DNA of 64,000 nucleotides from a virus (IMGVR_UViG_3300048549_001527), one strand, 5' to 3'; shown: positions 5,541 through 62,003, numbered from the stretch's first letter. Numbers and translations are program-made. The notes: generated by a model not told the origin, from the sequence alone.

Positions 5541-5569
5541 ATTCTACACTAGAATCAGTGGAATGTCAA
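5541..5569 (-). promoter_or_regulatory. Sigma70 promoter with GANTC in spacer (uvsY)
   Basis: TTGACA-ttccaCTGATTCtagtg-TAGAAT, 17 nt spacer. Confidence 0.8.
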
Positions 5570-5572
5570 CAA

Positions 5573-6064
5573 TTATAATTGAGTGATTGTGAAACCGTTA
5601 TGGCGGAATGTTACGGTTACTTCAGGGTTTACAATATCGCCAGGTGTAATATCTAAACTGATTGGAGAGATAGTAAGTGGGAAAGCATCTTTAAACCTAA
5701 ACTCAATATTTGGGTTCTTGTGGCTATTCGTCATGATAATTACAATATCTGACTTCAATCCATCTCTTGATTTCTTTAAGCGATCGAACTGCGCCAAATT
5801 TTCAGGAGTTGCAAGACCTTCCATCCAATTTAAAATTTCTATATAATTATCAAGGTTTTCATTGAGGATAAAACTCAAGTCAAGTTCAGCATATTCAAGA
5901 TGGTCAGGAACTTGATAGATATTTTTCAATGGGTTAGGAGTTGTAACCGCGGACATCGAAATCGAAGGCAAGATAGCCCGTTGTGTTGTAAATACTACAT
6001 TTGGTATTCTTTCAATAGACACCAAAAAGGATGTTGGATTCAAATAATTTGTCTGCATGTTCAT
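5573..6064 (-). CDS. gp3: Tail completion / sheath stabilizer
   Basis: Resembles T4 gp3 (N..F.VSI, LEYAELDLSFILNENL.NY.EI..WM, F.DAFP); late promoter upstream. Confidence 0.85.
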   Translation of the reverse strand: MNMQTNYLNPTSFLVSIERIPNVVFTTQRAILPSISMSAVTTPNPLKNIYQVPDHLEYAELDLSFILNENLDNYIEILNWMEGLATPENLAQFDRLKKSRDGLKSDIVIIMTNSHKNPNIEFRFKDAFPLTISPISLDITPGDIVNPEVTVTFRHNGFTITQL

Positions 6065-6071
6065 TTTCCTA

Positions 6072-6100
6072 TTTACATTCTGTCCCGAATCAGTTAGTAT
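6072..6100 (+). promoter_or_regulatory. Sigma70 promoter with GAATCAG spacer motif (topoisomerase operon)
   Basis: TTTACA-N9-GAATCAG-t-TAGTAT. Confidence 0.7.
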
Positions 6101-6103
6101 AGA

Positions 6104-6111
6104 TATTTATA
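6104..6111 (-). promoter_or_regulatory. T4 late promoter for gp3
   Basis: TATAAATA on minus strand about 40 nt upstream of gp3 start. Confidence 0.75.
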
Positions 6112-6148
6112 ATAAATAGAGTAACCGGTAACAGAAACAAGGATCTGT

Positions 6149-6214
6149 ATGGACAACGACGACATTCCGCATAAATGGGATGATCCGTGCGATGATTGTA
6201 CTCATTGGTTTTGA
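6149..6214 (+). CDS. 21-aa peptide MDNDDIPHKWDDPCDDCTHWF
   Basis: Read manually; AAGGA upstream; lies between promoter and gp39. Confidence 0.45.
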   Translation: MDNDDIPHKWDDPCDDCTHWF

Positions 6215-6239
6215 GTATACTATATAAAATGGAGTAAAT

Positions 6240-8069
6240 ATGTCTGAACAATTTAAAATCTTAACAGCTCGTCAACACGTTCGTGAACGCATTGGTATGT
6301 ACATGGGATCAAGCGCCCGTGAACCAATTGAACGTTTTATGATGGGCCAATGGGATAGAGTTGAATACGTACCAGCTTTATCAAAAATGATTGATGAAAT
6401 CTTAGATAACTCAATAGATGAAGCAATTCGCACTAATTTCAAATATGCAAATAAAATTGACGTGTCTATTAAAATGGACAACTCAATCACCGTAACAGAT
6501 AACGGACGTGGTATACCACATGAATTGGTTTATGATGAAACTACAGGAAGTAAAATATCTCAAGCGACAGCAGCATGGACGCGTGTCAACGCAGGTACAT
6601 CTTTTGACGATGAGCGAGTAACCATCGGAACGAACGGCGTAGGATCTGCGGCGACTAATTTCTTGTCTGCAAAATTTACAGGCAAAACATGGAGAGATGG
6701 TAAATGTCAAATCGTTCAGTGTACTAACGGTGCCGAGTCAATCAAAGAAAAAGTATCAGACAAAGCAGGTAACGGAACTGAAGTTTCATTCATTCCTGAT
6801 TTTGAATTATTTGAGTGTAATAGCCTAAATGAATACGATACGATTTCTTTAGTTGAAGATCGTCTTATCAGTTTGCAAATGGCCTTTCCTGAAATTACAT
6901 TTTCGTTTAATAAGAAACGGATTAAAGTTAACGATCTTAAAAAATATTCTAAAATGTTTGTAGGTGACCAACCAGCAATTATTGAAAAGTCTGATAACTT
7001 ATCATTTTTTATTGCGCATTCGTCAGATGGCTTTCGTTCAAATAGTTTTGTAAACGGTGTTAATACTCGCCAAGGCGGAACATATGTCGATTTTGTAATG
7101 AATAGCATTGTTGAAGAATTGTGCGTTATGATTAAACGTAAACATAAGATTGAAATTAATCGTAATCATTGTAAAGGTAATCTTACGTTTATTATGTTTG
7201 CTCGTAATTTTACTAATCCAAAATTTGACAGCCAAACTAAAGAGCGTCTAACAAACCCAACTGGAAATGTTAAAGAACACGCAACTGAAGCTGGTATTAA
7301 GGATGCTGTATTCTTTGCTCGCAAAATTTTAAATACTCCTGAGCTTATTGATCCTATTATCGAAGCGCAACTTGCGAGAAAGATTGCAGCTGATAAACGT
7401 GCAGCTACGCTTGCTCAAAAAGGCCTACGCCGCGTTAAGGTTGCAAAACATATTGCTGCCAACAAATCAAACGCAACTCTAAAGATCGTCGAAGGTGACT
7501 CAGCTATGGGTTTCTTACTTAAGGTTCGCGATGCTAATAAGGTTGGAGCATATCCACTTCGAGGCGTCATTATGAATACGTGGGATATGAAACCTGCTGA
7601 TGTATTGAAGAATAAAGAACTCTCCGAGCTCGTTGCGGTTTTAGGACTTGATATTACTAATCCTAATAGCGTTGACAATATGACATATGAAAGCGTTGCA
7701 ACTCTAACTGATGCTGACCATGATGGTATTGGTCATATTAGTCCATTGCTGATTGCATTCTTTTTCAAATTCTGGCCACGCCTATTAACCGAAAAACGTG
7801 TAAAGATTACTCGTACACCTATGATGATTTCAACGTTCAAAGATAAGGTTATTTGGTTTTACGATTACGATAGCGCAAACGATCATAAACAAAAAAATCC
7901 AAATTGGAAACACCGTTACATTAAGGGCCTCGGTTCATTAACTGAAAACGAATATGATAGTATTATTAACGATCCACAATATGATACTGTTACGGTCGAT
8001 GATGCAAGTATTTTTCAAATGATGTTTGGTAAAGACTCAGCATTACGTAAGGAGTATATGTTTGCATGA
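6240..8069 (+). CDS. gp39: DNA topoisomerase II large subunit (gp39+gp60 fused)
   Basis: GHKL motifs EILDNSIDE, DNGRGIP, GTNGVG; TOPRIM VEGDSA, PLRG, DADHDG, YIKGLGS. Confidence 0.96.
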   Translation: MSEQFKILTARQHVRERIGMYMGSSAREPIERFMMGQWDRVEYVPALSKMIDEILDNSIDEAIRTNFKYANKIDVSIKMDNSITVTDNGRGIPHELVYDETTGSKISQATAAWTRVNAGTSFDDERVTIGTNGVGSAATNFLSAKFTGKTWRDGKCQIVQCTNGAESIKEKVSDKAGNGTEVSFIPDFELFECNSLNEYDTISLVEDRLISLQMAFPEITFSFNKKRIKVNDLKKYSKMFVGDQPAIIEKSDNLSFFIAHSSDGFRSNSFVNGVNTRQGGTYVDFVMNSIVEELCVMIKRKHKIEINRNHCKGNLTFIMFARNFTNPKFDSQTKERLTNPTGNVKEHATEAGIKDAVFFARKILNTPELIDPIIEAQLARKIAADKRAATLAQKGLRRVKVAKHIAANKSNATLKIVEGDSAMGFLLKVRDANKVGAYPLRGVIMNTWDMKPADVLKNKELSELVAVLGLDITNPNSVDNMTYESVATLTDADHDGIGHISPLLIAFFFKFWPRLLTEKRVKITRTPMMISTFKDKVIWFYDYDSANDHKQKNPNWKHRYIKGLGSLTENEYDSIINDPQYDTVTVDDASIFQMMFGKDSALRKEYMFA

Positions 8070-8221
8070 TAGAATGGTATGATATACTAGCTGCAACCTT
8101 TTGTGCGTGGCTAATACTAAACTTTTTCTTCTTTCCATTTATCGGTCCCATTATATCATACAGTTTGTGGGAAGCTTGGAAAGTGTATTGCAATTATCGG
8201 TTGACATCTACACTCAAATAG
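8066..8221 (+). CDS. 51-aa hydrophobic membrane peptide between the topoisomerase genes
   Basis: Read manually: MIEWYDILAATFCAWLILNFFFFPFIGPIISYSLWEAWKVYCNYRLTSTLK; ATGA overlap, AAGGAG upstream. Confidence 0.55.
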   Translation: MIEWYDILAATFCAWLILNFFFFPFIGPIISYSLWEAWKVYCNYRLTSTLK

Positions 8222-8229
8222 TGTAGAAT
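8201..8229 (+). promoter_or_regulatory. Sigma70 promoter for gp52
   Basis: TTGACA-N17-TAGAAT; GAATC at 8235-8239 near the start site. Confidence 0.8.
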
Positions 8230-8253
8230 ATATAGAATCACAAAGGAAATATA

Positions 8254-9603
8254 ATGAGTATACTTGATTTTGCAAAAGCAGAAAAAGAATATCCAATTTC
8301 ATCTGTTGCGAAAAACGAATGGCTTTCGTTTGCTATGTACACAGTTGAAAGTCGTGCTATTCCAAATATGATTGACGGATTGAAACCTGTTCAGCGTTTC
8401 TACTTATATTCATCAATCCTAAATTCTAAAAACGATTTCAAAAAGGTGTCTGCGGTTGCTGGTATTATATCAGACTACGGATACAACCACGGTGAAGCAA
8501 GCGCAGCTGGTGCCGGTCAACTTATGGCTGCAGAGTGGAACAATAATGTCTGCTTAGTTGAAGGACGAGGATCGTTTGGTACTCGGTTAGTTCAAGAGCC
8601 TGGTGCAGCTCGTTATGTTTACACTCGTTTACACCAAAACTTCAAAAAGTATATTCGTGATTTAGATCTATCTCCACAACATAGCGATCCTGAACACGAA
8701 CCTCCTTCGTTTTATATTCCAGTTATTCCACTCGTGTTGACTAATGGAACTAAAGGTATCGCAACTGGTTTTGCTACAAACATATTACCTCGAAGCGCTG
8801 ATGCACTTTCTCGTGCCTGTCGCGAATATGTGACGTATGGTAATATATCCAAAAGGCTTCCAGTGTCCTTTCCGGACTTCAAAGGTACCGTAAACTATGA
8901 CAAAACTGATGATAAATACACAGTTCTTGGTTGTTTTGAAAAGAAGAGTAAAACAGTATTAGAAATAACTGAAGTACCATATGGCTTTGACAGAGAAGGC
9001 TATGTTAAGGTACTTGACAAGTTAGAGGAAGACGGAGATATCGTTTCTTATGAAGATCTTTGCGATAAATCTGGTTTTAAATTTGAAGTTAAACTAAAAC
9101 AGAACAGCTCATCAACGTGGACTAACGTAAAAATTATTTCAAAATTTAAGCTATCAAAGCCATTAACTGAAAACTTAACAGTAATTGGATTTGACGGAAA
9201 GCTGCGTGAATATAAAGACGAACGGCAACTCATCAAAGACTTTTGTGAATTTCGTATGGGTGTTCTTCAGCAGCGTATTGATTTGCGCAAGAAAGAAGCT
9301 GAAGAAGAAATGCGTTGGCTGAACGTTAAAATGCAATTCATTCAAGCAGTACTTGACAATCGTATTGAGTTTAAAAATCAAAAGAAAGCTGACGTAGCTG
9401 AGCAGATTTATAAACAAACAGATGCAGTACGCAACCTTGACGATGTTGACCGTTGTCTCCGTATTAATATACTAAGTCTTACGCAAGAAATGGTAAAAGC
9501 ATTAGAAAAAGAAATCAAAGAGGCTGAAAAGGATCTTAAGTTTTGGTCCAAGACAACACCAGCAAAACAATTCACAACAGATCTTGACGAGTTGGATTCA
9601 TAA
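8254..9603 (+). CDS. gp52: DNA topoisomerase II medium subunit
   Basis: RAIPNMIDGLKPVQR, YNHGEAS, GSFG, AARY catalytic Tyr, GIATGF. Confidence 0.96.
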   Translation: MSILDFAKAEKEYPISSVAKNEWLSFAMYTVESRAIPNMIDGLKPVQRFYLYSSILNSKNDFKKVSAVAGIISDYGYNHGEASAAGAGQLMAAEWNNNVCLVEGRGSFGTRLVQEPGAARYVYTRLHQNFKKYIRDLDLSPQHSDPEHEPPSFYIPVIPLVLTNGTKGIATGFATNILPRSADALSRACREYVTYGNISKRLPVSFPDFKGTVNYDKTDDKYTVLGCFEKKSKTVLEITEVPYGFDREGYVKVLDKLEEDGDIVSYEDLCDKSGFKFEVKLKQNSSSTWTNVKIISKFKLSKPLTENLTVIGFDGKLREYKDERQLIKDFCEFRMGVLQQRIDLRKKEAEEEMRWLNVKMQFIQAVLDNRIEFKNQKKADVAEQIYKQTDAVRNLDDVDRCLRINILSLTQEMVKALEKEIKEAEKDLKFWSKTTPAKQFTTDLDELDS

Positions 9604-10013
9604 TGTACTATGTTAGCTATGGAAAACCAAGATGGATATCTAATGAACTTATGGATAAGGCTGTATTGTTTGCATCTGACTTTCTTGAAATAGATGAGTC
9701 AGTTGAAATAGATTTTGGTGGCGAGTTTGATAACGAATGCGCTGGATATTGTGACTATGATGAAGAAGATGGTATAACATTATTTGTTAATCCAAAACTT
9801 AAAAAGAAAATGGTAATCACAACACTCTTTCACGAGTTTGTCCATGCAAAGCAATACATAAATGGTGAGCTTGAAATAGGTGAAGGCAAAGCGCCATCGC
9901 GTTGGAATGGCGAACCATTTGACGGAGATTACTATTCTTTACCGTGGGAAAAAGAAGCATACGAATTAGAAACAGTAATGTCAGACATATTTTTTAATGA
10001 AGTATTTAAATAA
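9603..10013 (+). CDS. HExxH zinc metallopeptidase-like protein
   Basis: TLFHEFVHAKQ plus PWEKEA. Confidence 0.65.
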   Translation: MYYVSYGKPRWISNELMDKAVLFASDFLEIDESVEIDFGGEFDNECAGYCDYDEEDGITLFVNPKLKKKMVITTLFHEFVHAKQYINGELEIGEGKAPSRWNGEPFDGDYYSLPWEKEAYELETVMSDIFFNEVFK

Positions 10014-10016
10014 CTA

Positions 10017-10045
10017 TTGACATTCTATCGCGAATCAGATAGTAT
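10017..10045 (+). promoter_or_regulatory. Early promoter, GAATCAG family
   Basis: TTGACA-N9-GAATCAG-a-TAGTAT. Confidence 0.85.
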
Positions 10046-11031: not shown

Positions 11032-11407
11032 AGTAGATAATTTAGATGATTCTTTAACAAAAGACTTTGTTAATTTTTGTTGTAAAGAGCTTAATATAAA
11101 ACCTCATAGCATTGAAGTTGTTGGCGCTGCGTATTTAGCAGGTAAAGACAGAACAGGAATGTGTATAGATCTTGACGAACAAAGCTATATAATAATGACT
11201 GCAGTTAAAGATCGTACTCTTACTGAAATATATACTACTGTTGCACATGAAATAGTTCACATCAAACAATACATGGAAAATAATCTCGGTAAATTACTCG
11301 ACAGCAACAAACCAAAATACGAAGATCGTTGGTGGGAAAAGGAAGCAAGAGAAAAAAGTTTGGTTTTTGTGAAAAAATTTGTTGACATTCTTGATAGAAT
11401 CAGATAG
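11021..11407 (+). CDS. HExxH zinc metallopeptidase-like protein, paralog of 9603-10013
   Basis: TVAHEIVHIKQ plus WWEKEA; start moved to ATG 11021. Confidence 0.65.
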   Translation: MNIKVDNLDDSLTKDFVNFCCKELNIKPHSIEVVGAAYLAGKDRTGMCIDLDEQSYIIMTAVKDRTLTEIYTTVAHEIVHIKQYMENNLGKLLDSNKPKYEDRWWEKEAREKSLVFVKKFVDILDRIR

Positions 11408-11410
11408 ATT
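11382..11410 (+). promoter_or_regulatory. Early promoter, GAATCAG family
   Basis: TTGACA-N9-GAATCAG-a-TAGATT; second GAATC beside RBS. Confidence 0.85.
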
Positions 11411-11440
11411 ATATATATCAAATGGAAAAAAGGAATCACC

Positions 11441-12481: not shown

Positions 12482-12559
12482 GGTCTCTTAGCTCAGCCGG
12501 ATTAGAGCAAGTGCCTTCTAAGCACTAGGTCGTAGGTTCGAGTCCTACAGAGATCACCA
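12482..12559 (+). tRNA. tRNA-Arg(TCT)
   Basis: Cloverleaf: acceptor GGTCTCT/AGAGATC, anticodon loop CTTCTAA, GGTTCGAGTCC T-arm, encoded CCA. Confidence 0.95.
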
Positions 12560-12561
12560 AT

Positions 12562-12646
12562 ACTCGCATGTTGGAATTGGTAGACAATGAAGACTTAAAA
12601 TCTTTTGCCTTAGGGCGTACCGGTTCGAGTCCGGTTGCGAGTACCA
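12562..12646 (+). tRNA. tRNA-Leu(TAA)
   Basis: Acceptor ACTCGCA/TGCGAGT, anticodon loop CTTAAAA, long variable arm, T-arm, CCA. Confidence 0.95.
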
Positions 12647-13357: not shown

Positions 13358-14169
13358 TGGAGCCAAAACTAAAAGGATTTCCAAAGTGCTACGTTGTTAA
13401 CCTTGAAGAAAGTGTTGAACGTAGAGACTATATGAATTCCGAGTTTAATAGACTCGGTTTAGATGGAACCGTCCTACAATACAAAAGACTTGAAGACAGC
13501 GATTTAAAGATTGCTGGCGACCGTGACACCTTGGACATACTACCATTAGGTGCTACTACTTCTCATCTCCTGACCATTAAGTGGTGGTATGAAAATACTG
13601 ATGATGAACAAGCCGCATTCTTTGAAGACGACTGTGACTTTAGCACTATTCAACATTGGAACTTTGTTTATGAGGATTATGTTAAGGAGTTTGGCGTATT
13701 GTGGGATGGTCTCCAACTTTGCTGCATGCACGAAGGCTGGGCTGTTATGTATCCACGCCACCGCAACGGCCACGATCATGGACTTCAATGCTATGTAATT
13801 AAGCGCCATTATGCTAAAAAAATTATAGACTATTATTTTGTAAATGATAACACAATACATTTTAAAATGCCGTATGTATTAAAGAGTGAAGATAGTAAAA
13901 AGTATAAACCTACTATAGAAAATGTTGTATATGGATTAGGCACTTTCTATATTCACCCGTTATTTAATCATAACGTACCAAAATTTCCATCAACAGTTCA
14001 CGATCCAAATTCACAACATTTAAAAGATGTTGCTAATCACGCATATGGATATGTTAAACAGTGGTGGGAAACCAAAGGAGGAACTGGTAACCTTAATGAA
14101 TTATTTACTTATGAGTGGTGTTGTCCACCACCTCAAACATTTTCCCAAGTCATGCATATTGATAGGTAG
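13357..14169 (+). CDS. Glycosyltransferase family 25-like
   Basis: YVVNLEESVERR N-terminus, SHL, FFEDD. Confidence 0.75.
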   Translation: MEPKLKGFPKCYVVNLEESVERRDYMNSEFNRLGLDGTVLQYKRLEDSDLKIAGDRDTLDILPLGATTSHLLTIKWWYENTDDEQAAFFEDDCDFSTIQHWNFVYEDYVKEFGVLWDGLQLCCMHEGWAVMYPRHRNGHDHGLQCYVIKRHYAKKIIDYYFVNDNTIHFKMPYVLKSEDSKKYKPTIENVVYGLGTFYIHPLFNHNVPKFPSTVHDPNSQHLKDVANHAYGYVKQWWETKGGTGNLNELFTYEWCCPPPQTFSQVMHIDR

Positions 14170-15489: not shown

Positions 15490-16190
15490 AAATACAAAAT
15501 ATTGCCTTGTTTCCAACGAATGTAACTCACGCACAACATGAGGTTAGCAAAGAAGAACAAGATCTTTGGTTTGATTTGTATTTAAAACATTCTAATGAAG
15601 ATGGGAGAACTCATGACCTTTTAGGATATGAACAAATCCAATTAGAGCCAAGCCTAGAAGGTTTCTTTAAGCATAAAGTAATGCCGAGTGTACGTGAATA
15701 TTTCAAAACGTTAAGTGTTGACTCAAACAAGTTTAACGTCCATATAACTAAAACTTTCTTTAACGTTGTTGACGATAACGGAATCAATAAACACAACCAC
15801 GAAGAAAACCATATATCATTTACTTATTATCCATATATAAAACCAGGAAAAGAAAGAAGTATTATATTATATGATACTAAATCTTGCCATTCAAACGAAA
15901 TAAACACAAGTTGGTTTTTTCATTATGTTGATAAATGGACTGAAATGAATTGTACTAATTTTTCTATACCAGTAGGTCAAGGTTCTATGCTTATTTTTCC
16001 AAGCAATATGAACCATGATATCACAAAAGAAAAACATGAAAGTACAGTTATAAATTCGTTTAAAACTAAAGAGGATTTACTTGAAAGCCGGTTTTGTGTT
16101 GCAGGTGATATGATCATTACAAAAAAACCAGAAGCAAAAGTTTATATGAGAACTTTATCATCTCCTGAAAATTGGAAAACATTTGGTTGA
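15486..16190 (+). CDS. 2OG-Fe(II) oxygenase (TIGR02466-like)
   Basis: KHNH..HISFTYY, MLIFPSNMNH, RFCVAG. Confidence 0.7.
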   Translation: MKIQNIALFPTNVTHAQHEVSKEEQDLWFDLYLKHSNEDGRTHDLLGYEQIQLEPSLEGFFKHKVMPSVREYFKTLSVDSNKFNVHITKTFFNVVDDNGINKHNHEENHISFTYYPYIKPGKERSIILYDTKSCHSNEINTSWFFHYVDKWTEMNCTNFSIPVGQGSMLIFPSNMNHDITKEKHESTVINSFKTKEDLLESRFCVAGDMIITKKPEAKVYMRTLSSPENWKTFG

Positions 16191-16215
16191 CATTCTAAAA
16201 GAATCAGTATAAATT
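16187..16215 (+). promoter_or_regulatory. Early promoter, GAATCAG family
   Basis: TTGACA-N8-GAATCAG-ta-TAAATT. Confidence 0.75.
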
Positions 16216-26626: not shown

Positions 26627-26655
26627 TTGACATTTGGTTTAGAATCAGTTATATT
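26627..26655 (+). promoter_or_regulatory. Early promoter, GAATCAG family
   Basis: TTGACA-N9-GAATCAG-t-TATATT. Confidence 0.85.
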
Positions 26656-27501: not shown

Positions 27502-27530
27502 TTGACATTCTGTTTAGAATCAGTTATATT
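27502..27530 (+). promoter_or_regulatory. Early promoter, GAATCAG family
   Basis: TTGACA-N9-GAATCAG-t-TATATT; second GAATCAG beside RBS. Confidence 0.85.
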
Positions 27531-27561
27531 AGTTATATCAAATGGAAAAAAGGAATCAGTT

Positions 27562-27920: not shown

Positions 27921-27997
27921 CTCGGTGTAGCTTAGCTTGGTAAAGCGCCTGGTTTGGGACCAGGAGACCGTAGGTTCAAATCCTACTTCCGAGACCA
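27921..27997 (+). tRNA. tRNA-Pro(TGG)
   Basis: Anticodon stem CCTGG/CCAGG with loop TTTGGGA, T-arm GTAGG-TTCAAAT-CCTAC, CCA; one mismatch in acceptor stem. Confidence 0.92.
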
Positions 27998-46225: not shown

Positions 46226-46278
46226 ATTACGAAACACCTTTTACTTTTGCGACCATACTAAAAAATAATGTATACGTA

Positions 46279-46286
46279 TATTTATA
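46279..46286 (-). promoter_or_regulatory. T4 late promoter for the hydroxylase/desaturase operon
   Basis: TATAAATA on minus strand upstream of the QueC-like gene. Confidence 0.7.
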
Positions 46287-46299
46287 CGAAAAAAAACAG

Positions 46300-46333
46300 T
46301 TGACATATCGTTTTGCCTGTGGTATACTGATTC
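46300..46333 (+). promoter_or_regulatory. Early promoter with GANTC directly after the -10 box
   Basis: TTGACA-N17-TATACT-GATTC, extended TGn. Confidence 0.85.
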
Positions 46334-46354
46334 TATAAACAGAAAGGATACAAG

Positions 46355-46534
46355 ATGAAAATGTGGAAAAGATTTTACGAAATAACAGTTACATCTTCTG
46401 AAGGAAAACTTCTACATAAGTCAGAAGAATATTCCGGATATTCAACATCTGAAGAACTAATGTATCTTGATAAGCAATATCCTGGTTGTAAAGTTGAAGC
46501 TGAGTTCAAAGAATATGAAATTAATTCAAATTAA
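46355..46534 (+). CDS. Hypothetical early protein (59 aa)
   Basis: Read manually (MKMWKRFYEITVTSSEG...); AAGGA RBS. Confidence 0.6.
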   Translation: MKMWKRFYEITVTSSEGKLLHKSEEYSGYSTSEELMYLDKQYPGCKVEAEFKEYEINSN

Positions 46535-46537
46535 CTA

Positions 46538-46566
46538 TTGACATTTCGTTTAGAATCAGTTATATT
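46538..46566 (+). promoter_or_regulatory. Early promoter, GAATCAG family
   Basis: TTGACA-N9-GAATCAG-t-TATATT; second GAATCAG beside RBS. Confidence 0.85.
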
Positions 46567-46597
46567 AATAGTATAACAAAATGAAAAGGAATCAGTA

Positions 46598-47005
46598 ATG
46601 GCTTTTACATACTCAGACGATTGTATCTCAGATCTTCATAAAGAAGTTTACGGCTACCGTCCTCGCGGTGCTTTCTTCGATGATTGGTCTAACTGTACTC
46701 CTGCTGAAAAGCAAAAGACGTGGGATGAATATTGCCGTGCTCTTGAAATTCAAATGGCTGAAACCAAATCTCAGGAAGAGCAAGACGTCGCCAAGTTTGA
46801 AGCTCGAGTTCAAGACGTAATTGGTCTTGGCGCCAACGACCGTAAAACAGCGCTTAGCTGGATTACTGGTTCTGAAACCTTTTATCACTCTCAAGATGTT
46901 GAACATTTTGTGTGGGAGCAAGGAATTTTGTTTACTCAATACGGTAAGCAGTTAGTTAAAGATCTTTTGAAGATCGTTGAATATAAGGAATATGATTATG
47001 CTTAA
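46598..47005 (+). CDS. Hypothetical early protein
   Basis: SDLHKEVYGYRPRG motif; RBS. Confidence 0.8.
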   Translation: MAFTYSDDCISDLHKEVYGYRPRGAFFDDWSNCTPAEKQKTWDEYCRALEIQMAETKSQEEQDVAKFEARVQDVIGLGANDRKTALSWITGSETFYHSQDVEHFVWEQGILFTQYGKQLVKDLLKIVEYKEYDYA

Positions 47006-47171
47006 TAAGTACTTTAGAATTGAAGCTTTTTCTTTTGAAGATGGCGAATACAAGTTGCAAGAGTTCGCAACTGGTTTTGCTCATAAGCAAGCCGCTGATT
47101 ACTTTCGTCGCCTGCATGATACTAATGAATTTGCTAAGATCACTATGAAACCTGTAAAGGCAGCTGCGTAA
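46998..47171 (+). CDS. Hypothetical early protein
   Basis: RBS-supported start 46998. Confidence 0.6.
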   Translation: MLNKYFRIEAFSFEDGEYKLQEFATGFAHKQAADYFRRLHDTNEFAKITMKPVKAAA

Positions 47172-47301
47172 TGACTGAAAGATTAATATACGGAACTGCA
47201 ATTGCAATTGCTCTTGTGTTATGTGGATGGTATATAATCCACATTTGGTCTGATTGTTTAAACGAAAACTCAGTGTTTACTTGTATGCGGATGCTTAATA
47301 A

Positions 47302-47553
47302 ATGACAAAGCTAACAAACCCTCTCGAGATTTCAGAATACAAACAGCGTTGGATGCGAGAAGGATCGCATTCAGTTCAAATCCATAGTGATCTTCGTAAC
47401 AAAGCGTTAGACTATTGTAAAGTTCAAATGTTCAGACAACAGTGGGTTCATAGGAAGTATACAGATGTATATGAAGATACATTCTTTTTTGAGCAATTGC
47501 TTGACGCAAAAGCTTTTGCAAATTATTTTAAAGAATGGGTAATTAACGATTGA
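47302..47553 (+). CDS. Hypothetical protein
   Basis: 83 aa ORF, YTDVYEDTFFFE motif. Confidence 0.7.
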   Translation: MTKLTNPLEISEYKQRWMREGSHSVQIHSDLRNKALDYCKVQMFRQQWVHRKYTDVYEDTFFFEQLLDAKAFANYFKEWVIND

Positions 47554-47578
47554 CATTCGTTATGAAATAGTATAGAGT
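47550..47578 (+). promoter_or_regulatory. Early promoter, variant without spacer GANTC
   Basis: TTGACA-N17-TAGAGT; spacer has GAAATAG; GAATC beside RBS. Confidence 0.7.
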
Positions 47579-47604
47579 AATTTTACAACAAAAGGAATCA
47601 CTCT

Positions 47605-47799
47605 ATGACACTATACACTAAAAAATCCGAAATTCTTTTTAACTATCTTGTACTTCCTCACTGGGAAAACCGTGAGGATTTTGGTCTTGTACATCTTGAC
47701 ACCAATGAAACAATCTATGAAGGTACCTGTTTTGAGTGCTGGACTTATCTTGCTAAAATCCAACCAAAGTGTCGTTGGTTACAAAAATATGTGAAATAA
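47605..47799 (+). CDS. Hypothetical early protein
   Basis: 64 aa, RBS. Confidence 0.65.
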   Translation: MTLYTKKSEILFNYLVLPHWENREDFGLVHLDTNETIYEGTCFECWTYLAKIQPKCRWLQKYVK

Positions 47800-47802
47800 C
47801 TA

Positions 47803-47831
47803 TTGACATTCCGTCGCGAATCAGATATATT
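47803..47831 (+). promoter_or_regulatory. Early promoter, GAATCAG family
   Basis: TTGACA-N9-GAATCAG-a-TATATT. Confidence 0.85.
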
Positions 47832-47860
47832 GTATATATCAAATGAAAAGGAACTATATC

Positions 47861-48142
47861 ATGGCTTATGTAACTTACAAAAATCGCTCATCATCAGACT
47901 ATCGTTTTACTTGTAAATCTCTTGATGATCCTGAGATTGCAAATCTTAAAGAAATACTTGTTAACCGCAACAGCTTCATTAAACGTGCCCGCAAACAAAC
48001 GGGTATGATGAGTTTTTATGGGAAACAAAAAACACAAGGACTTCGTATTCGTCCTCGTGGTCCTCGTCCGTCTCAGTGGGCAAAAGATACGCCTTGGGAA
48101 AACGCTACTCATTATGACGTTTACATCCGGGATTATTCATAA
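47861..48142 (+). CDS. Hypothetical basic early protein
   Basis: RBS-supported start 47861. Confidence 0.7.
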   Translation: MAYVTYKNRSSSDYRFTCKSLDDPEIANLKEILVNRNSFIKRARKQTGMMSFYGKQKTQGLRIRPRGPRPSQWAKDTPWENATHYDVYIRDYS

Positions 48143-48300
48143 TGGATTATAAAGATCTTGTAAAAAAGTTTGTCTCTGAAGGCGGTTCCATTACAAAGTG
48201 TGAACCGTCAAAGAAACGTTTCAAAACATTCCGCGGCAAGGCGGGAGCCTACAATCGTGGTGCTAAGAAAATCAATTTGCAGGATAAAGGTATTGCATAA
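48142..48300 (+). CDS. Hypothetical basic protein (52 aa)
   Basis: Read manually (MDYKDLVKKFVSEGGSITKC...); TAATG coupling at both ends. Confidence 0.65.
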   Translation: MDYKDLVKKFVSEGGSITKCEPSKKRFKTFRGKAGAYNRGAKKINLQDKGIA

Positions 48301-48833
48301 TGTGTAAATCTGCTATTAAAAATCTCGCATCTTTACTTCGCACTGAAGTCTTCGACAAAATTGATTCCTATTGGACTGAGGCTGAAACTTATAGTATTAT
48401 TGAACTCAGAGATTTAGGTAGCGGATATTACGACGAAGATCGTTATCAAGTTAATCATATTGTTGCTCCTAAAAGGAGCGGTAGATCTATTGATGCAAAT
48501 AGTGCCAAAGGCGTATACATTTGGTATCACGGAGATCAGATTATGTATGTTGGTAAAACAGACGCGCCTTCAACGAGTATTCACAAACGGCAATATGCCC
48601 ACTCGCGTAGCTTTACAACACCACACGAAAGACACGAATCTTCAGGACGTAAATATCGCGAGTTTTTAAAAGAAAATAATTTACATTCTATGGATATTGT
48701 GATAAAATATATTAATACTGATAAGTTTGATATTGAAGGTATGGCAGAACTCATTGAAACTGCAACTATTAATAATTATCAGCCATTACTTAATCGTGAA
48801 ATTAAAGGGAGAGGCCAGAGAGAATGCTATTAA
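48300..48833 (+). CDS. GIY-YIG-like nuclease
   Basis: KGVYIW..IMYVGKT, later H/R, E..I...QPLLN. Confidence 0.7.
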   Translation: MCKSAIKNLASLLRTEVFDKIDSYWTEAETYSIIELRDLGSGYYDEDRYQVNHIVAPKRSGRSIDANSAKGVYIWYHGDQIMYVGKTDAPSTSIHKRQYAHSRSFTTPHERHESSGRKYREFLKENNLHSMDIVIKYINTDKFDIEGMAELIETATINNYQPLLNREIKGRGQRECY

Positions 48834-49378
48834 TCATTGAAGGTATGGATCGCTGTGGTAAATCCACATTGGTACAAAACCTACGTAAAAAATATTTTAA
48901 AAATCCAAACATAATGGCTCACCATTCATCTTCTCCTCCTGACTTTGAAGATCCTAATGGTTGGGAAAAAGAACATTATGAGTCTTTGTTCATTGCATCT
49001 AAACGACTTGTAAATCAAATGAATTATGATATTATCTTTGACCGTTTCCATCTCGGTGCAATCGTCTATGGCGAAAAGTATCGTGCTGCAGACGGTAAAG
49101 ACATTTATGAATTAGATCGAAGGTTTCTTAGCGGATATAAAAATGCCGCTCTAATTTTGTTGACTGATACTACTGACGGTATTATGTCTCGTGATGATGG
49201 CGATAGCCTTGAACAAAGTAAAGAAGATTTCTTATATAGTCGTAACGCGTTTTTGACTGCGTTCAACGAGTCAAGCTGTAAACATAAACTAAGCATAAAT
49301 ATAACAAAGAACGGTGGAGTGGGTAACACATATGATACCGTTGTAAATTTTTTAGATGGAGTTCGTAATGAGAATTGA
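48824..49378 (+). CDS. Thymidylate-kinase-like dNMP kinase
   Basis: IIEGMDRCGKST P-loop, FDRFHLG. Confidence 0.85.
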   Translation: MLLIIEGMDRCGKSTLVQNLRKKYFKNPNIMAHHSSSPPDFEDPNGWEKEHYESLFIASKRLVNQMNYDIIFDRFHLGAIVYGEKYRAADGKDIYELDRRFLSGYKNAALILLTDTTDGIMSRDDGDSLEQSKEDFLYSRNAFLTAFNESSCKHKLSINITKNGGVGNTYDTVVNFLDGVRNEN

Positions 49379-50066
49379 TAGTGTACATGACATTCGTGAG
49401 TTCTTTAAAGGCGAGCTAGCCGACGAAGCATTTACAATTGATAAGACAGGCCAACGGACTATTGAATTAATTGGCGCAAACTTTCTTGCAACAGAACCTG
49501 CAATCTTTGGTGAACCAAGTCAAGCTTATATTAACTCTGAGCTTGCTTGGTATGAGTCGCAATCAACAAACATTAATGATATCTATGGACCATCCAAACC
49601 TGCTCCTGCCGCATGGCAATATTCAGCAGATCCACACGGTAATATTAATTCCAATTATGGTCATTTAGTATTCTCTAAAAAATATCATAACCAATTCCAA
49701 AATGCTTTTGATGAACTATGGAGTAACCCTGATAGCCGTCGTGCTCAAATGATTTACAATCGTCCATCTATTTGGGTTGAGTTTGACGAAGGTGGTAAGT
49801 CTGACTTTATTTGTACTAATGCACAAACGTTTTATATCCGCGATGGCATTCTGATGATGGTGTCACAAATGCGTTCTAACGACGCAATCTTTGGCTATAA
49901 AAACGACTATGCTTGGGCTCAATATCTTATGGATAAGTTTGTTGCTCAATGGAACCAACAATGTAAACTTCCTGGCAATAAGCACTTTACTATTGATAAA
50001 GGTATGCTTACATGGCAAGCTATGAATTTGCACGTGTATGAGCGCCACTTTGACTTGGTTGTATAA
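49368..50066 (+). CDS. gp42: dCMP hydroxymethylase (thymidylate synthase fold)
   Basis: Colinear with T4 gp42: DKTG..TIE.IGA.F, EL.WY, INSNYG, NPDSRR, DF.CTN, MRSND, NDYAW (Asp implies dCMP specificity), LHVY.RHF. Confidence 0.9.
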   Translation: MRIDSVHDIREFFKGELADEAFTIDKTGQRTIELIGANFLATEPAIFGEPSQAYINSELAWYESQSTNINDIYGPSKPAPAAWQYSADPHGNINSNYGHLVFSKKYHNQFQNAFDELWSNPDSRRAQMIYNRPSIWVEFDEGGKSDFICTNAQTFYIRDGILMMVSQMRSNDAIFGYKNDYAWAQYLMDKFVAQWNQQCKLPGNKHFTIDKGMLTWQAMNLHVYERHFDLVV

Positions 50067-50594: not shown

Positions 50595-51104
50595 ATGGAA
50601 GAACGTGAGCCTTACGAGGCATACATGCGTAGGCGCAATTTAGAAGAAGACACCCGTGAATTAAAATGGGATAACCGCTTTATGGAATTGGCTAAAACAA
50701 TTTCAGGATGGAGCAAAGATCCTTCGAGTAAAATTGGTGCAGTGGCAGTAAACGATGAACGCCGCATACTTGCGACTGGATATAACGGTTTCCCAAAAGG
50801 CATTGAAGATAGTCAAGAAAGACTAAACGATAGAGAACAAAAATATCCGCTTATTGTTCACGCTGAAACAAACGCGTTGATGAATGCGCTTTATGCTGGT
50901 GTTTCTTTAAAAAATGCAACAATGTACGTTCATGGATTACCCGTGTGTCCTGACTGTACTAAGCTTATTATTCAAGCAGGCATTCGTAGAATTGTTATTA
51001 ACAAATTCGTAATGAATACTCCAGAAAAATGGGTTGAGCTATGGAATAGCAAATCAGGACCTATGTTTAAAGAGGCAGGCGTATTGGTAACACAGCTTGG
51101 CTAA
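50595..51104 (+). CDS. cd: dCMP deaminase
   Basis: SKDPSSKIGA, TGYNGFP, HAETNA, PVCPDC. Confidence 0.93.
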   Translation: MEEREPYEAYMRRRNLEEDTRELKWDNRFMELAKTISGWSKDPSSKIGAVAVNDERRILATGYNGFPKGIEDSQERLNDREQKYPLIVHAETNALMNALYAGVSLKNATMYVHGLPVCPDCTKLIIQAGIRRIVINKFVMNTPEKWVELWNSKSGPMFKEAGVLVTQLG

Positions 51105-51759
51105 TAATTTAACTGATATATATGTTGGCGTTAAGAAAAACGATCCTAATCGTAAAAAGAATGACTTTTATCCAACTCCGCCTCTTGCCACATATGTATT
51201 GTGCAAGTATGGTAATCCTCCACAAAATTTAATTGAACCTTGTGCCGGTCGAGGTAACATAACAAGAGAATTAGTTCGTAACGGTCATAATGTTATATCG
51301 TATGACTTAAATGATTATAGTGATAAATTAGTACCTATTAAAACTACAGTTGATGCTATGGAATTACAAAAGCTTGATGGCTTTGATGGTGTAGTTACCA
51401 ATCCCCCATATCATAAAGACTTGCCGCGGAAGATGGCGGAAAAATGGATAAAAGAATATGATTACGTCGCAATGTTTTTAAGACTAACTTTCTTTGAAGG
51501 AAAAAAACGAAATAAACTATTTACAAACTACCCGCCTAGTGATATAATATTTTTATCAGATCGAGTTAGATTTGATTCTAATATTGTAGAACCAATTGAA
51601 AAGAAAGATCAGATCGGCGGCATGATTGCATATGCTTGGTTCATTTGGAACAAAAAGTATCCGCAAGGATTAACTAAAATGCGTTGGGCAATGCTTGAAG
51701 ATGAATATGACGAGTGGAGATTAAATTATGATAAATGTAGTAATACCGGCAGCAGGTGA
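51097..51759 (+). CDS. Amino (N6-adenine / N4-cytosine) DNA methyltransferase
   Basis: DFYPTP, EPCAGRG (motif I), TNPPY (motif IV). Confidence 0.85.
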   Translation: MANNLTDIYVGVKKNDPNRKKNDFYPTPPLATYVLCKYGNPPQNLIEPCAGRGNITRELVRNGHNVISYDLNDYSDKLVPIKTTVDAMELQKLDGFDGVVTNPPYHKDLPRKMAEKWIKEYDYVAMFLRLTFFEGKKRNKLFTNYPPSDIIFLSDRVRFDSNIVEPIEKKDQIGGMIAYAWFIWNKKYPQGLTKMRWAMLEDEYDEWRLNYDKCSNTGSR

Positions 51760-54794: not shown

Positions 54795-56006
54795 ATGAGC
54801 GAAATTACATGGGCCCCAATTATTCCACTAATCGGTGGACAAATGCTAGGAGCAGAAAAAGCTTTTGGAAAACCACCTGAAGCTATCTATTCATACGCGG
54901 ACTTTGAAGGAAACGATAGTCATTATGTTAACTATCAGCAAAACGTCAAAGGGCGTGACGTACAATATAAAATGATACCTGAAAGTTCAAGTCGACATAT
55001 AAGTGTTATTTCAGGCACACCACCTTGTGCGGCATTATCACAACTTAACACTGGTAAAACCGAAGCGGCAAAAGGTGCAAAATGCGAAAAGAACGAATGG
55101 ATGTACGAAGTCTTTAAAGAAGGCATTAACCGATTTTCAGCTAAAGCTATTGTTGTTGAAAACGCTCCTGCACTGTTTACTAAAAAAGGTAAAGAAGTAG
55201 CTGATAATTTGTTTGACATTTGCTCAAAAGCAGGGTATAGTTTAACTCTATATAAAACATCTACAAAATATCATGGTATCCCACAAGCTAGAGATCGTTG
55301 TTTTGCCATTGGTTGGAATTCAGAAACCGCTCCTATTATGAATTGGTACAAACGGCCTCGTAAAAAGTTTCACGAATATCTTTCGGATTTAACAGACGAT
55401 ATTCAACAAATGGATATTTTGTGTAACAAAAAACTTGATGAAGAACCTTACTATCAATACATCAAGTCACTTACAAACGAAGATCCTCGTAAGGTAATTA
55501 TGGAAAGCGGACAGATTACGGCATTTAACTATATTAATAAAAGTGGTAAATTGCCTGCTTGTAATAAATGGATGCATGATACAAATAACGAACGCGGTAT
55601 CAAAGTATCAGACCATGCTGTTAAAAAGTTTGCAATGGGTAAAGGTATTTGGGATAGCTCAACACACGTCTTTGGAGATTGTATGAATGCAGTTATCGGT
55701 CGTAACCTTGCAGATACAATTCATCCAAAGTTTGATCGTTCTTTAACTATTCGTGAAGCGTTGTATCTTATGGGTTTCCCTCATGACTTTGAGCTTGTTG
55801 GCGGATTACCTAAAATGAATCATATTGCTCAAAACGTTCCTGTTCCAACATCAAGAGATATTCATACTGAAATCGGTAAGTTTATTCGTGGCGAGTTAAC
55901 GATGTCAGATACTAATTACCATCGTCAAGATAACCATAACGAACGGATGTGGTCTGATCCGGGTGGGAAAAACAACCAAGCAACACTTGAGGAGTTCATG
56001 GCTTGA
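54795..56006 (+). CDS. C5 cytosine methyltransferase-fold protein with atypical motif I
   Basis: GTPPC (IV), VENAP (VI), GIPQARDR (VIII), RSLTIREA..LMGFP (IX), QNVP (X); motif I reads IPLIGG. Confidence 0.8.
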   Translation: MSEITWAPIIPLIGGQMLGAEKAFGKPPEAIYSYADFEGNDSHYVNYQQNVKGRDVQYKMIPESSSRHISVISGTPPCAALSQLNTGKTEAAKGAKCEKNEWMYEVFKEGINRFSAKAIVVENAPALFTKKGKEVADNLFDICSKAGYSLTLYKTSTKYHGIPQARDRCFAIGWNSETAPIMNWYKRPRKKFHEYLSDLTDDIQQMDILCNKKLDEEPYYQYIKSLTNEDPRKVIMESGQITAFNYINKSGKLPACNKWMHDTNNERGIKVSDHAVKKFAMGKGIWDSSTHVFGDCMNAVIGRNLADTIHPKFDRSLTIREALYLMGFPHDFELVGGLPKMNHIAQNVPVPTSRDIHTEIGKFIRGELTMSDTNYHRQDNHNERMWSDPGGKNNQATLEEFMA

Positions 56007-60154: not shown

Positions 60155-60562
60155 ATGCAATCTGAAGAAAACATTTTTAAAGGTGTTGGTATTGAGGTAT
60201 CCCTCCCAACACAGGATAGTTTTTTAAAAATTAAAGAAACTCTCACGCGTATTGGTATTTCATCCCGCAAAGAAAAGAAGCTGTATCAGTCTTGCCATAT
60301 ATTACACAAGCAAGGTCGATATTCAATTTTACACTTTAAAGAACTATTTATTTTAGATGGTAAAAAAGATACATTTGCTGATGAAGACAAAGCAAGGCGT
60401 AACACAATTGTTAACCTACTTGAAGAATGGGGATTAGTTAATGTTATTGACACAGATAACGCACAAGACCCAATTGCCCCATTAAACCAAATTAAAATAT
60501 TATCTCATAAAGAAAAAGGTAATTGGATATTAGAGGCAAAATATAACATAGGAAAAAAATAA
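60155..60562 (+). CDS. regA: Translational repressor RegA
   Basis: FLKIKETLTRIGI, LYQSCHILHKQGRY.I.HFKELF.LDG. Confidence 0.96.
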   Translation: MQSEENIFKGVGIEVSLPTQDSFLKIKETLTRIGISSRKEKKLYQSCHILHKQGRYSILHFKELFILDGKKDTFADEDKARRNTIVNLLEEWGLVNVIDTDNAQDPIAPLNQIKILSHKEKGNWILEAKYNIGKK

Positions 60563-60565
60563 ATT

Positions 60566-61075
60566 ATGAATGTATATAAAGTGAATGAAAATGCTGAGTT
60601 GCCGGCATATGCAACAGATGGCTCAGCTTGTTTTGATATTAAAGCATGTTTTAAACGTGGTGATAAACTTTTAGCCTATAATAATTGGAATAAAGAAACA
60701 CACGTGGCGGTTAAAGGTGTTGGGCGAGTTGCTGACGCGTTTCAAATTCCCCCGGATACTAGAGTCTTAATACCAACTGGCCTCGTGTTTGATATACCTG
60801 AAAACCACGTAATGAAAATGTACGTACGTTCAGGCGTTGCACTAAAAAAAGGATTGACATTAGCAAATAATGTTGGTATAATAGATTCAGACTATGTGGA
60901 ACAGACTTTCATTATGATGATTAATCAAACTGATAGTCTTGTTATGATTGAAAACGGTGAGAGACTGGCGCAGTGTCTTATTGAAAAGACTACAAAAATT
61001 GAAATTAATGAAACTGCTGAACCAATTGTTTCTAAGACAGATCGTGATGGAGGTTTTGGTAGTACAGGAGATTAA
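60566..61075 (+). CDS. dut: Trimeric dUTPase
   Basis: ATDGSACFD, RSGVA, GIIDSDY, ERLAQ, RDGGFGSTG. Confidence 0.95.
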   Translation: MNVYKVNENAELPAYATDGSACFDIKACFKRGDKLLAYNNWNKETHVAVKGVGRVADAFQIPPDTRVLIPTGLVFDIPENHVMKMYVRSGVALKKGLTLANNVGIIDSDYVEQTFIMMINQTDSLVMIENGERLAQCLIEKTTKIEINETAEPIVSKTDRDGGFGSTGD

Positions 61076-61076
61076 A

Positions 61077-61412
61077 ATGTTAAAATACATTACTTTAGGA
61101 CTACTTGCTGCGAGCTCTGCTGTGGCACAAGAACAAGGTGATATCACACGACATCCTTGTGGATCGTTTGAAGAAGCTGGAGCAATTTTAAAATCAACAG
61201 GGCAAGATATGCTTTGGAAAGGCCGCGGCACAACATTCCATATTAGCGGTGAGCAACAAACACCTGAAGTGGTATTCCATGTTAATCAGAAAACCGGTGC
61301 ATGGAGTTTAGTATCGTTATATCCAGGAAACATAGCTTGTTTAGTAATGGCGGGATGGGGGTTTGAGCCTTATTCAATTCCAACAAAAAAAATTGAAAAA
61401 AAATCCCCATAA
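61077..61412 (+). CDS. Secreted hypothetical protein
   Basis: GGAG RBS; signal peptide MLKYITLGLLAASSAVA; two Cys. Confidence 0.7.
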   Translation: MLKYITLGLLAASSAVAQEQGDITRHPCGSFEEAGAILKSTGQDMLWKGRGTTFHISGEQQTPEVVFHVNQKTGAWSLVSLYPGNIACLVMAGWGFEPYSIPTKKIEKKSP

Positions 61413-61450
61413 CTATTGACATTTAACTAAAAAGTATTATATATAGATAG

Positions 61451-61508
61451 TAGACGCTCAACAGAGGTCTATTAAAATTAACTCGCTTATTTAAGGAGAA
61501 CAAAAATG
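61451..61508 (+). promoter_or_regulatory. ROSE-like RNA thermometer in the hsp20 5' UTR
   Basis: Hairpin 61451-61471, then CUCGCUU(61482-88)/AAGGAG(61493-98) SD-sequestering hairpin with bulged G (UYGCU motif). Confidence 0.7.
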
Positions 61509-61964
61509 ACTAGAACTAAATTTAATGCGGCAGCGCTAAACGATCCATTGTTTATCGGATTTGACAGAATGTTAGAAAGAATGAATTCTGTTGATACAGT
61601 GCATCGCAACACGTCCAATTATCCCCCATATAATATTGTAAAAGTAGACGAAGATAATTTTACTATAGAACTGGCATTAGCTGGTTTTAAAGATGAAGAT
61701 ATTGACGTTACACTAAAAGATGGAGTATTATATGTTGAAGGTAACCAAGGTGATAACGATGAAAAAACATATTTGCATCGTGGGCTATCGGCTCGTTCCT
61801 TCCGTAGATCTTTTACAATAGCTGATACCATTGTTGTTAATGGAGCAGATTTTGTAAATGGCATTCTAACCATTTCGTTAGAAAATGTAATTCCTGAAGA
61901 AAAGAAACCTCGAAAGATTGCTATCAACAACGGAAATCATAAGGCTGAACTTCTCAACGGGTAA
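61506..61964 (+). CDS. hsp20: Small heat-shock protein (Hsp20/IbpA-like)
   Basis: NYPPYNIVK, IELALAGF, YLHRGL..RSFRR.F, NGIL.I.LE..IPEEKKPR.I.I. Confidence 0.96.
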   Translation: MTRTKFNAAALNDPLFIGFDRMLERMNSVDTVHRNTSNYPPYNIVKVDEDNFTIELALAGFKDEDIDVTLKDGVLYVEGNQGDNDEKTYLHRGLSARSFRRSFTIADTIVVNGADFVNGILTISLENVIPEEKKPRKIAINNGNHKAELLNG

Positions 61965-61970
61965 GTACTA

Positions 61971-62003
61971 TTGACAAAATAATAAACTATGTTATATTGA
62001 TTC
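61971..62003 (+). promoter_or_regulatory. Sigma70 promoter with GANTC after the -10 box
   Basis: TTGACA-N16-(TGt)TATATT-GATTC. Confidence 0.65.

Follow-up and report, generated by a model that had tools for sequence, protein, structure and literature searches.

An invariant word resembling the GcrA box in early promoters of an uncultured marine T4-like phage

Caulobacter crescentus promoters of the GcrA/CcrM type, such as PcsM and PmipZ, have a sigma-70 core and one asymmetric box of 7 bp, TGATTC(G/T), in the spacer that separates the -35 element from the -10 element (PMC4647560, PMC5887438, PMC9976885). GcrA prefers TGATTCG and, more broadly, YGAKTCK; TGAGTCG is another high-ranked site and AGATTCA the lowest-ranked GcrA word (Haakonsen et al., PMC4647560). 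The GcrA domain is monomeric and contacts all seven base pairs in the major groove (Wu et al., PMC5887438). Upstream of the start site GcrA boxes are reported to peak at -20 and -30, within the spacer, and downstream of it at +8 and +18. In PcsM the box GAATC occupies -22 to -18, and the published clash-free fit is -20 +/- 1 (PMC9976885); in a GcrA-activated promoter the box centre may also be at -30 +/- 2 or +5 to +30. Phages of alphaproteobacteria are known to meet this module: GcrA homologs are present in phiCbK-like Caulobacter phages (Gill 2012, as cited in PMC4647560), GANTC is depleted in pelagiphages, and there are reports of methylated GANTC in the genomes of marine tailed phages (PMC9516812). 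Here we compare these systems with the early promoters of a 64,000-nucleotide stretch of viral DNA, IMGVR_UViG_3300048549_001527 (the whole stretch is called the window below), in which the word (A/C)GAATCAG holds a fixed place in the promoter spacer. A sequence-only reading of this DNA had proposed that the phage recruits host GcrA, or an epigenetic mark made in the previous host, instead of a MotA/AsiA system.

Early promoters of the sigma-70 type fall into two classes in this phage. Class A promoters, all of which have sigma-70-type -35 and -10 elements, combine a perfect -35 box and a 17-bp spacer with a sub-optimal -10 box (TATATT, TAGATT or TAGTAT), and their word (A/C)GAATCAG spans -21 to -14 (positions count the -10 box as -12 to -7, and start sites are predicted). 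The consensus TATAAT is found in 1 of 40 class A promoters and TG at -15/-14 in none, against 12 of 70 and 26 of 70, respectively, of the class B promoters in the same phages. Because its -10 boxes are so rarely consensus and TG is absent, class A looks helper-assisted. These promoters sit about 30 nt upstream of small open reading frames (ORFs; median length 75-118 aa) at a fixed short distance, the -10 box being 22-38 nt from the ATG, and no Pfam family match was found among those ORFs tested. Class B also drives larger, known genes.

The word is conserved well beyond the window. A scan set fetched without reference to the word (the window, the complete relatives G001 and G002, and 78 loci collected by gp52 similarity) yielded 45 distinct promoters that fit TTGACA-N9-GAATC-N3-TAnnnT. 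Of these, 44 have the heptamer GAATCAG and one has GAATCGG, and the preceding base is A in 34, C in 9, G in 2 and T in none. Over 143 instances the word itself is invariant, whereas the information at the adjoining spacer positions amounts to only 0.2-0.4 bits, and the cassette-like promoters of the lineage comprise 40 exact copies versus one with a single mismatch. G001 has 13 such promoters and G002 has 11, with no other GANTC variant at that place. As the neighbouring bases vary and the word does not, selection rather than recent copying accounts for its constancy: eight consecutive base pairs are under strong purifying selection, and the word is a real, selected promoter element. It is asymmetric and lacks a dyad partner, which points to a monomeric reader. 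The word is restricted to one lineage (relatives with at least 75% gp52 identity) and is shifted by one base in the next group. Other relatives that share a cytosine-modification gene cluster have TTGACA-N8-GAATC(A/G)G-N2-TATTCT and TAnnnT-GATTCTATAAGG, and in clade members farther removed the same place is taken by AACTGTG, AACTATG or AAGTTTG, forming TGn extended -10 promoters with a perfect TATAAT.

In the window, the eleven sites listed by the sequence-only reading were all recovered at their positions. Seven, on the plus strand, read TTKACA-N9-GAATCAG-N-TAnnnT, a pattern that gave no match in 100 dinucleotide-preserving shuffles. They lie at 6072-6100 (TTTACA-N9-GAATCAG-t-TAGTAT, upstream of the gp39-like topoisomerase subunit gene at 6240-8069), 10017-10045 (TTGACA-N9-GAATCAG-a-TAGTAT, followed by a small ORF), 11382-11410 (-10 box TAGATT), 26627-26655 (TATATT, upstream of a 76-aa ORF), 27502-27530 (TATATT), 46538-46566 and 47803-47831 (upstream of a 99-aa ORF). 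The site at 16187-16215 (plus strand) is the N8 variant TTGACA-N8-GAATCAG-ta-TAAATT, with its box centre at -19. At 5541-5569, on the minus strand upstream of a uvsY-like gene, the word is inverted in the spacer (TTGACA-N7-GATTC-N5-TAGAAT, giving TGATTCT on the top strand); its spacing is like that of PcsM and its orientation is opposite. Two further plus-strand promoters, at 46300-46333 (TTGACA-N17-TATACT) and 61971-62003 (TTGACA-N16-TATATT, upstream of a respiratory gene cassette), have GATTC immediately 3' of the -10 box, such that TGATTCT overlaps the last T of that box. Read on the TGATTC strand, all eleven sites give TGATTC(T/G), with TGATTCG on the lower strand at 6072, 10017 and 47803. 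Second GAATC words lie near the ribosome-binding site at 11433 (11433-11437, beside that of a 74-aa ORF), 27553 (GAATCAG at 27553-27559, in the leader of 27502), 46589 (GAATCAG at 46589-46595, behind 46538) and 47595. Duplexes carrying the promoter box are, as written, TTTAGAATCAGT and TTTAGAATCAGTTA.

Two promoter-associated sites were found in addition to the eleven. At 8201-8239 (plus strand), upstream of the gp52-like topoisomerase subunit gene, a TTGACA-N17-TAGAAT promoter has no spacer box and runs TAGAAT-atata-GAATCA, with aGAATCA 5 nt past the -10 box. At 60854 the sequence is TATAAT-aGATTCAg, which falls outside the GcrA consensus. A second recurrent type of cassette, TAnnnT-GATTCTATAAGGTAAAAC, whose -10 box shares its last T with TGATTCT, occurs in the window at 46300-46345 and 61971-62010, in G001 at 49169 and 61651, in G002 at 192837 and in locus L315 at 4825 and 5944; its top strand agrees with YGAKTCK, though at -7 to -1, where GcrA boxes are unreported.

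The sequence-only reading proposed comparing GANTC in promoter spacers with background as a check. Enrichment was found around promoters, whereas GANTC is under-represented overall: the window has 130 sites versus 201 +/- 14 in shuffles. GAATCAG itself occurs 16 times against 8.4 expected, and the surplus sits in promoters. In promoter windows, taken around 101 matches to TTGACA-N17-TAnnnT across the window, G001 and G002, GANTC density is 2.9x the genome-wide value and 76% of the GANTC sites fit YGAKTCK, versus 29% elsewhere and 25% by chance. The GANTC centres cluster at -18 (30 sites), -19 (2), -4/-3 (12), +2 to +4 (5), +12 (2) and +18 to +20 (8).

Comparison with the Caulobacter promoters gives a close match of sequence. 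The lower strand reads TGATTC(T/G), and thus fits YGAKTCK, in 43 of the 45 distinct promoters, with the preferred TGATTCG in 9. The base preceding GAATCAG varies between A and C, a transversion, whereas G, the transition partner of A, is rare, as a requirement for K at the end of the box predicts. We estimate that a match to YGAKTCK would arise for about 0.1-0.3% of arbitrary invariant heptamers. As in PcsM, the box is in the spacer of a sigma-70 core and in the same orientation, and as in the Caulobacter promoters extra boxes occur just past the predicted start site. The phage differs from phiCbK-like phages and pelagiphages, with which it shares a probable alphaproteobacterial setting and, as in some of those lineages, a depletion of GANTC-type words, in that no GcrA or CcrM gene was found in its complete relatives and its link to the module would be through cis sites in promoters; unlike in pelagiphages, only GAWTC is depleted here. 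Two further comparisons were uninformative. In candidate host genomes a perfect TTGACA plus YGAKTCK at any spacing gave 0-5 matches, no more than the control, which says nothing of the host's preferred geometry. The first 50 kb of Caulobacter phage Cr30 contain no TTGACA-N17-TAnnnT promoters; GANTC is frequent there (251 sites), and Cr30 makes a poor comparator.

The window (35% G+C) belongs to a marine T4-like phage, as yet uncultured and about 210 kb in size. It encodes a T4-type replication and recombination set, including UvsW, UvsY, gp39-like and gp52-like topoisomerase subunits, gp45, gp44 and gp62, together with RegA and a dUTPase-family protein. A search of a phage collection found no close isolated relative and no match to the promoter cassette; the best tblastn protein identities to isolated phages are 42-55%, to T4-like phages of many hosts (Vibrio, Aeromonas, Methylophilales, Sinorhizobium, Stenotrophomonas and cyanobacteria). 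Near letter-for-letter copies of window DNA were found in metagenomes from 18 studies, mostly of seawater, and IMG/VR holds many relatives, among them the complete genomes G001 (201 kb) and G002 (221 kb). The sequencing runs holding window DNA are all seawater, marine or freshwater metagenomes and so name no host. Three tRNA genes in the window, Arg(TCT) at 12482-12646, Leu(TAA) at 27921-27997 and Pro(TGG) at 13400-13486, read A-ending codons, which suggests that the host has a higher G+C content than the phage; a minus-strand tRNA-Asn(ATT) call within an ORF is doubtful. Elsewhere in the window, five consecutive ORFs lie within 32662-38359, and the two that were scanned (32662-33861 and 33858-35024) match Radical_SAM and SPASM. 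A 136-aa ORF at 9603-10013, between the gp52-like gene and promoter 10017, has weak SprT-like and DUF6782 metallopeptidase matches (E 7e-5).

Evidence on the host comes from the respiratory cassette at 62745-63998, downstream of promoter 61971, which encodes a PF07835 peptide, a pseudoazurin and a DoxX-family protein. The pseudoazurin (62967-63395, plus strand) has a signal peptide and its best PDB match is 3TU6, a named pseudoazurin. In a search of one genome per prokaryote species, 78 of its 80 best genome matches have alphaproteobacterial names. The nearest pseudoazurins, 64-67% identical, are on Rhodobacteraceae/Ascidiaceihabitans contigs of 48-50% G+C, and in a tree the phage clade stands beside those genes with moderate support (SH-like approximate likelihood-ratio test 84). 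The 68-aa peptide at 62745-62951 (plus strand) resembles subunit IV of aa3-type cytochrome oxidase and scores above the Pfam cut-off for PF07835 (COX4_pro_2; 26 bits), a family for which Caulobacter gave the only match in a set of 14 control genomes, and which was found in 57 of the 151 genomes drawn from the class of the candidate host. As a protein query the peptide gave no match in the candidate hosts, although the family model did match. Both genes point to Alphaproteobacteria, so the objection that the host lies outside that class, which would have refuted the sequence-only reading, fails; since the pseudoazurin is closest to Rhodobacteraceae genes the host is most likely a member of that family. 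Two sets of contigs from the phage clade are binned in alphaproteobacterial metagenome-assembled genomes (MAGs), L201 (35% G+C) in Rhodobacteraceae bacterium Water_Bin34 and L192-L195 of P0029 in a Hellea sp. MAG; these contigs are mis-binned and could mislead annotation, and they give a weak hint of the host. Protein atlas look-ups returned only 'Pseudomonadota' or 'Viruses'. The candidate host lineage has both parts of the GcrA/CcrM module: a CcrM-family methylase was found in five of five and GcrA in three of five, these genomes being incomplete. In the one candidate-host GcrA examined, residues 1-45 are near-identical to those of the Caulobacter protein, and all of the DNA contacts named in PMC5887438 are kept.

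Recruitment of host GcrA to class A promoters is the leading reading, which we hold tentatively. It is supported by the match of the heptamer to YGAKTCK together with a host that independently comes out as alphaproteobacterial with the same reading head. GcrA rides on sigma-70 region 2, and its small DNA-binding domain would dock on TGATTC(G/T) in the spacers and aid open-complex formation. About a dozen immediate-early phage genes would thereby be wired to the GcrA-loaded fraction of host RNA polymerase, and early phage expression would be tied to the host's replicative phase. Candidate writers of the adenine mark are host CcrM and an adenine-methylase-like protein of the phage itself, described below. 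The hijack proposed by the sequence-only reading stands as to motif, place in the spacer and host lineage, and is put in doubt by the box offset, the use of GAATC alone, probable cytosine modification and the lack of a CcrM-family gene in complete relatives.

These and several other observations weigh against GcrA. The box centre is at -18 in 30 of 33 spacer sites and at -19 in the rest and in more distant relatives, so that the main cluster is 2 bp nearer the -10 box than in PcsM and 1 bp beyond the clash-free range. The central base is always A, with a single GACTC variant, though GcrA and CcrM would also accept GACTC. The G at -14 is invariant yet lies beyond the GcrA heptamer. Copies in the leaders read GGAATCA, giving TGATTCC on the lower strand with the last K broken, and the word at 60854 is AGATTCA, to which GcrA gives its lowest rank. 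With a perfect -35 box and a 17-bp spacer the promoters may need no activator, and sister lineages of the clade use TGn extended -10 promoters instead. The host is also inferred rather than known.

The strongest mechanistic objection is the probable state of the phage cytosines. The gene at 49356-50066 (plus strand) encodes a T4 gp42-type dCMP hydroxymethylase (E 8.7e-57 to PDB 1B49) and is accompanied by glycosyltransferases. Phage DNA is therefore probably hydroxymethylcytosine-based, perhaps glycosylated, and both cytosines of each GAATC site would then carry C5 substituents in the major groove read by GcrA, unlike in the Caulobacter promoters. The substituent may also hinder CcrM. Moreover, GcrA and CcrM-family genes were not found in the complete genomes G001, G002 and G003 (the last an unrelated complete phage genome drawn in through one pattern match), and the lack of a CcrM-family gene in the two close relatives leaves methylation of packaged DNA uncertain. 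A tblastn search of the phage with host GcrA gave nothing significant; a hidden GcrA-like domain was rejected as a candidate, the best hit (E 0.5) lying inside a putative metallopeptidase-like ORF.

The phage itself might write the adenine mark through a small putative N6-adenine-methylase-like protein at 51097-51759 (plus strand; motifs FYPTP, EPCAGRG and TNPPY), called the NPPY methylase below. Its gene lies inside the cytosine-modification cluster of the window, and its orthologs travel with that cluster. No NCBIfam family was found for it, PDB matches are insignificant (E >= 0.16), and at least 120 homologs are listed, all from metagenome or sequencing-run assemblies without informative names. 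A fuller version of the GcrA reading, in which the phage uses GcrA at its immediate-early promoters and an adenine methylase of its own, adapted to hydroxymethylcytosine DNA, marks the packaged genome, is unlikely on present evidence. Early expression in the next cell would then depend both on the mark left by the previous infection and on a GcrA-rich host in replicative phase. A promoter-like site, TTGACATTTGC...AAAG..GG-N-TATAGT, lies at 55213-55241 inside a gene for a C5-methylase-fold protein and is kept in all relatives examined (G001 40870, G002 141170, L192 2264, L313 15213 and L314 14165).

The foremost rival to GcrA is another sequence-specific protein whose site resembles a GcrA box by coincidence: either some host factor other than GcrA or a phage early or virion-borne factor by which class A is boosted or shut off. 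We consider this somewhat unlikely. In its favour, an invariant 8-bp spacer word with copies after the -10 box and in leaders resembles an operator, and where the -35 box is perfect and the spacer is 17 bp long a promoter needs help less than it needs shut-off. AsiA, the early shut-off factor of T4, was not found: PF09114 and PF09010 (MotA and AsiA) gave no match in G001, G002 and G003 in searches run without a positive control, which agrees with the sequence-only reading that the phage does not rely on a MotA/AsiA system. The fixed place at -18 and the strict central A would suit a dedicated binder better than GcrA, and the element is lineage-specific, as phage regulators are. However, most phage repressors are dimers and the word has no dyad symmetry, no DNA-binding family was found among the ORFs tested, and the weak -10 boxes of class A suit activation over repression. 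The coincidence itself would be a rare one, given the estimated rate of chance matches per alignment and an alphaproteobacterial host supported by independent evidence.

Comparison with T4 places class A among early rather than middle promoters. MotA/AsiA-dependent middle promoters of T4 likewise have a short asymmetric box in a sigma-70 promoter and a reader acting through sigma, but in them the -35 element gives way to the MotA box at -30, whereas class A keeps a perfect TTGACA as its -35 box; moreover, MotA and AsiA are phage proteins made after infection. The features of T4-type early promoters are all present, namely a sigma-70 consensus, an A/T-rich upstream region, a short leader and small early ORFs. 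T4-type early promoters and promoter-early stem-loop (PeSL) cassettes share with class A the strong sigma-70 consensus, near-identical repeated cassettes with short leaders and small orphan ORFs behind them, and the occurrence of one cassette in otherwise unrelated contexts (PMC2839356, PMC4122927, PMC1524935). Class A differs from them in its invariant 8-bp spacer word and in having no upstream stem-loop or terminator: folding of the 60-nt stretches upstream of 12 promoters gave z-scores no lower than -1.3 and no higher than +1.0, and the absence of stem-loops ruled out a reading as PeSL cassettes. We know of no such spacer word described for the early promoters of T4, RB49 or KVP40.

A second rival, rather improbable in our judgment, is that host RNA polymerase reads the word directly, through sigma region 3 or the beta-prime zipper, as a lineage-specific substitute for the TGn extended -10 element. 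Like TGn, the word adds information immediately upstream of the -10 box. It occupies -20 to -14, the place held in sister lineages by AACTGTG or AACTATG, whose TG is at -15/-14. Its distance from the -10 box is fixed, its G at -14 never varies, and class A has neither TG nor a consensus -10 box. The phage promoters nevertheless have AG at -15/-14 (44 of 45, with GG in one) and five more invariant bases upstream. Known contacts of polymerase with the spacer involve 2-4 loosely specified bases, so eight invariant ones would be unusually specific. A fixed contact would also leave unexplained the recurrence of the word at other distances and in both orientations around promoters.

A third rival, which we rate as improbable, takes GAWTC words as the targets either of the phage NPPY methylase or of restriction-modification at GAWTC by the host, in which case the copies in promoters would act by methylation without GcrA. 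Among the pentamers of the window, G001 and G002, GAATC/GATTC ranks second in depletion (observed/expected 0.62-0.64, z -5 to -10) whereas GAGTC/GACTC is undepleted (1.04-1.19), and the depletion tracks use of the word across lineages (0.62, 0.77, 0.86 and 1.00), which fits a word that is 'read'. The methylase ortholog is likewise present in relatives with GAATC- or GATTC-type promoters (G001, G002 and L313-L315) and missing from G004 and G008, which have none. This co-occurrence is confounded by shared descent, and the methylase sits inside a cytosine-modification cluster, its target not assigned by sequence. GAWTC is a type II restriction site and six-base palindromes are avoided too, so restriction avoidance is a rival cause of the depletion; the avoidance of such palindromes weakens the case for depletion as proof of genome-wide reading. 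Restriction avoidance would, however, purge the promoter copies, not fix them. In the same statistics, the most depleted pentamer is GATCA/TGATC (observed/expected 0.55-0.73 in the window and in G001 and G002, L279-L309), with GATC itself undepleted in the window (0.97). The most depleted hexamer of G001 is GATCAG/CTGATC (23 versus 67 expected), one base short of GAATCAG, and G002 avoids many six-base palindromes (TGATCA 0.07, AACGTT 0.31, TGTACA 0.25).

The possibility that the word is functionless and merely rides in a promoter cassette spreading by duplication and recombination, as PeSL-type mobile cassettes do, is very remote. Repetition does extend over the entire unit, from about -45 up to the start codon, and a 64-nt cassette (46531-46594) is the sole stretch common to this locus and some metatranscriptome contigs (7.5 kb and 4.4 kb), which diverge on both flanks and so place it in different gene contexts, but the constancy of the word amid varying spacer bases, the ratio of exact to mismatched copies, the missing stem-loops and the retention of the word at gp52 identities of 75-79%, and at N8 in still more distant phages, all speak against it. 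Note that the metatranscriptome contigs over 45900-48900, which cover 46323-47305, are as contigs uninformative on start site, strand or level, and that those starting within the promoter reflect read-through or DNA.

GcrA boxes, T4-type early cassettes, GcrA homologs in phages and GANTC depletion in pelagiphages are all on record; a fixed GcrA-type box in phage early promoters was not reported in the literature searched. Even if GcrA is not the reader, the invariant 8-bp spacer word marks a discrete class of early promoter and provides a handle for finding its factor in a widespread group of uncultured phages. If GcrA does read the boxes, this would be, as far as we know, the first virus to wire its earliest genes to a host reader of N6-methyladenine that rides on RNA polymerase. 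The promoters would then form a natural, strong and compact set for studying the effects of box position (-18 versus -20) and of cytosine modification on GcrA, and they would give the phage a route by which to couple infection with the host cell cycle in the abundant marine Rhodobacteraceae.

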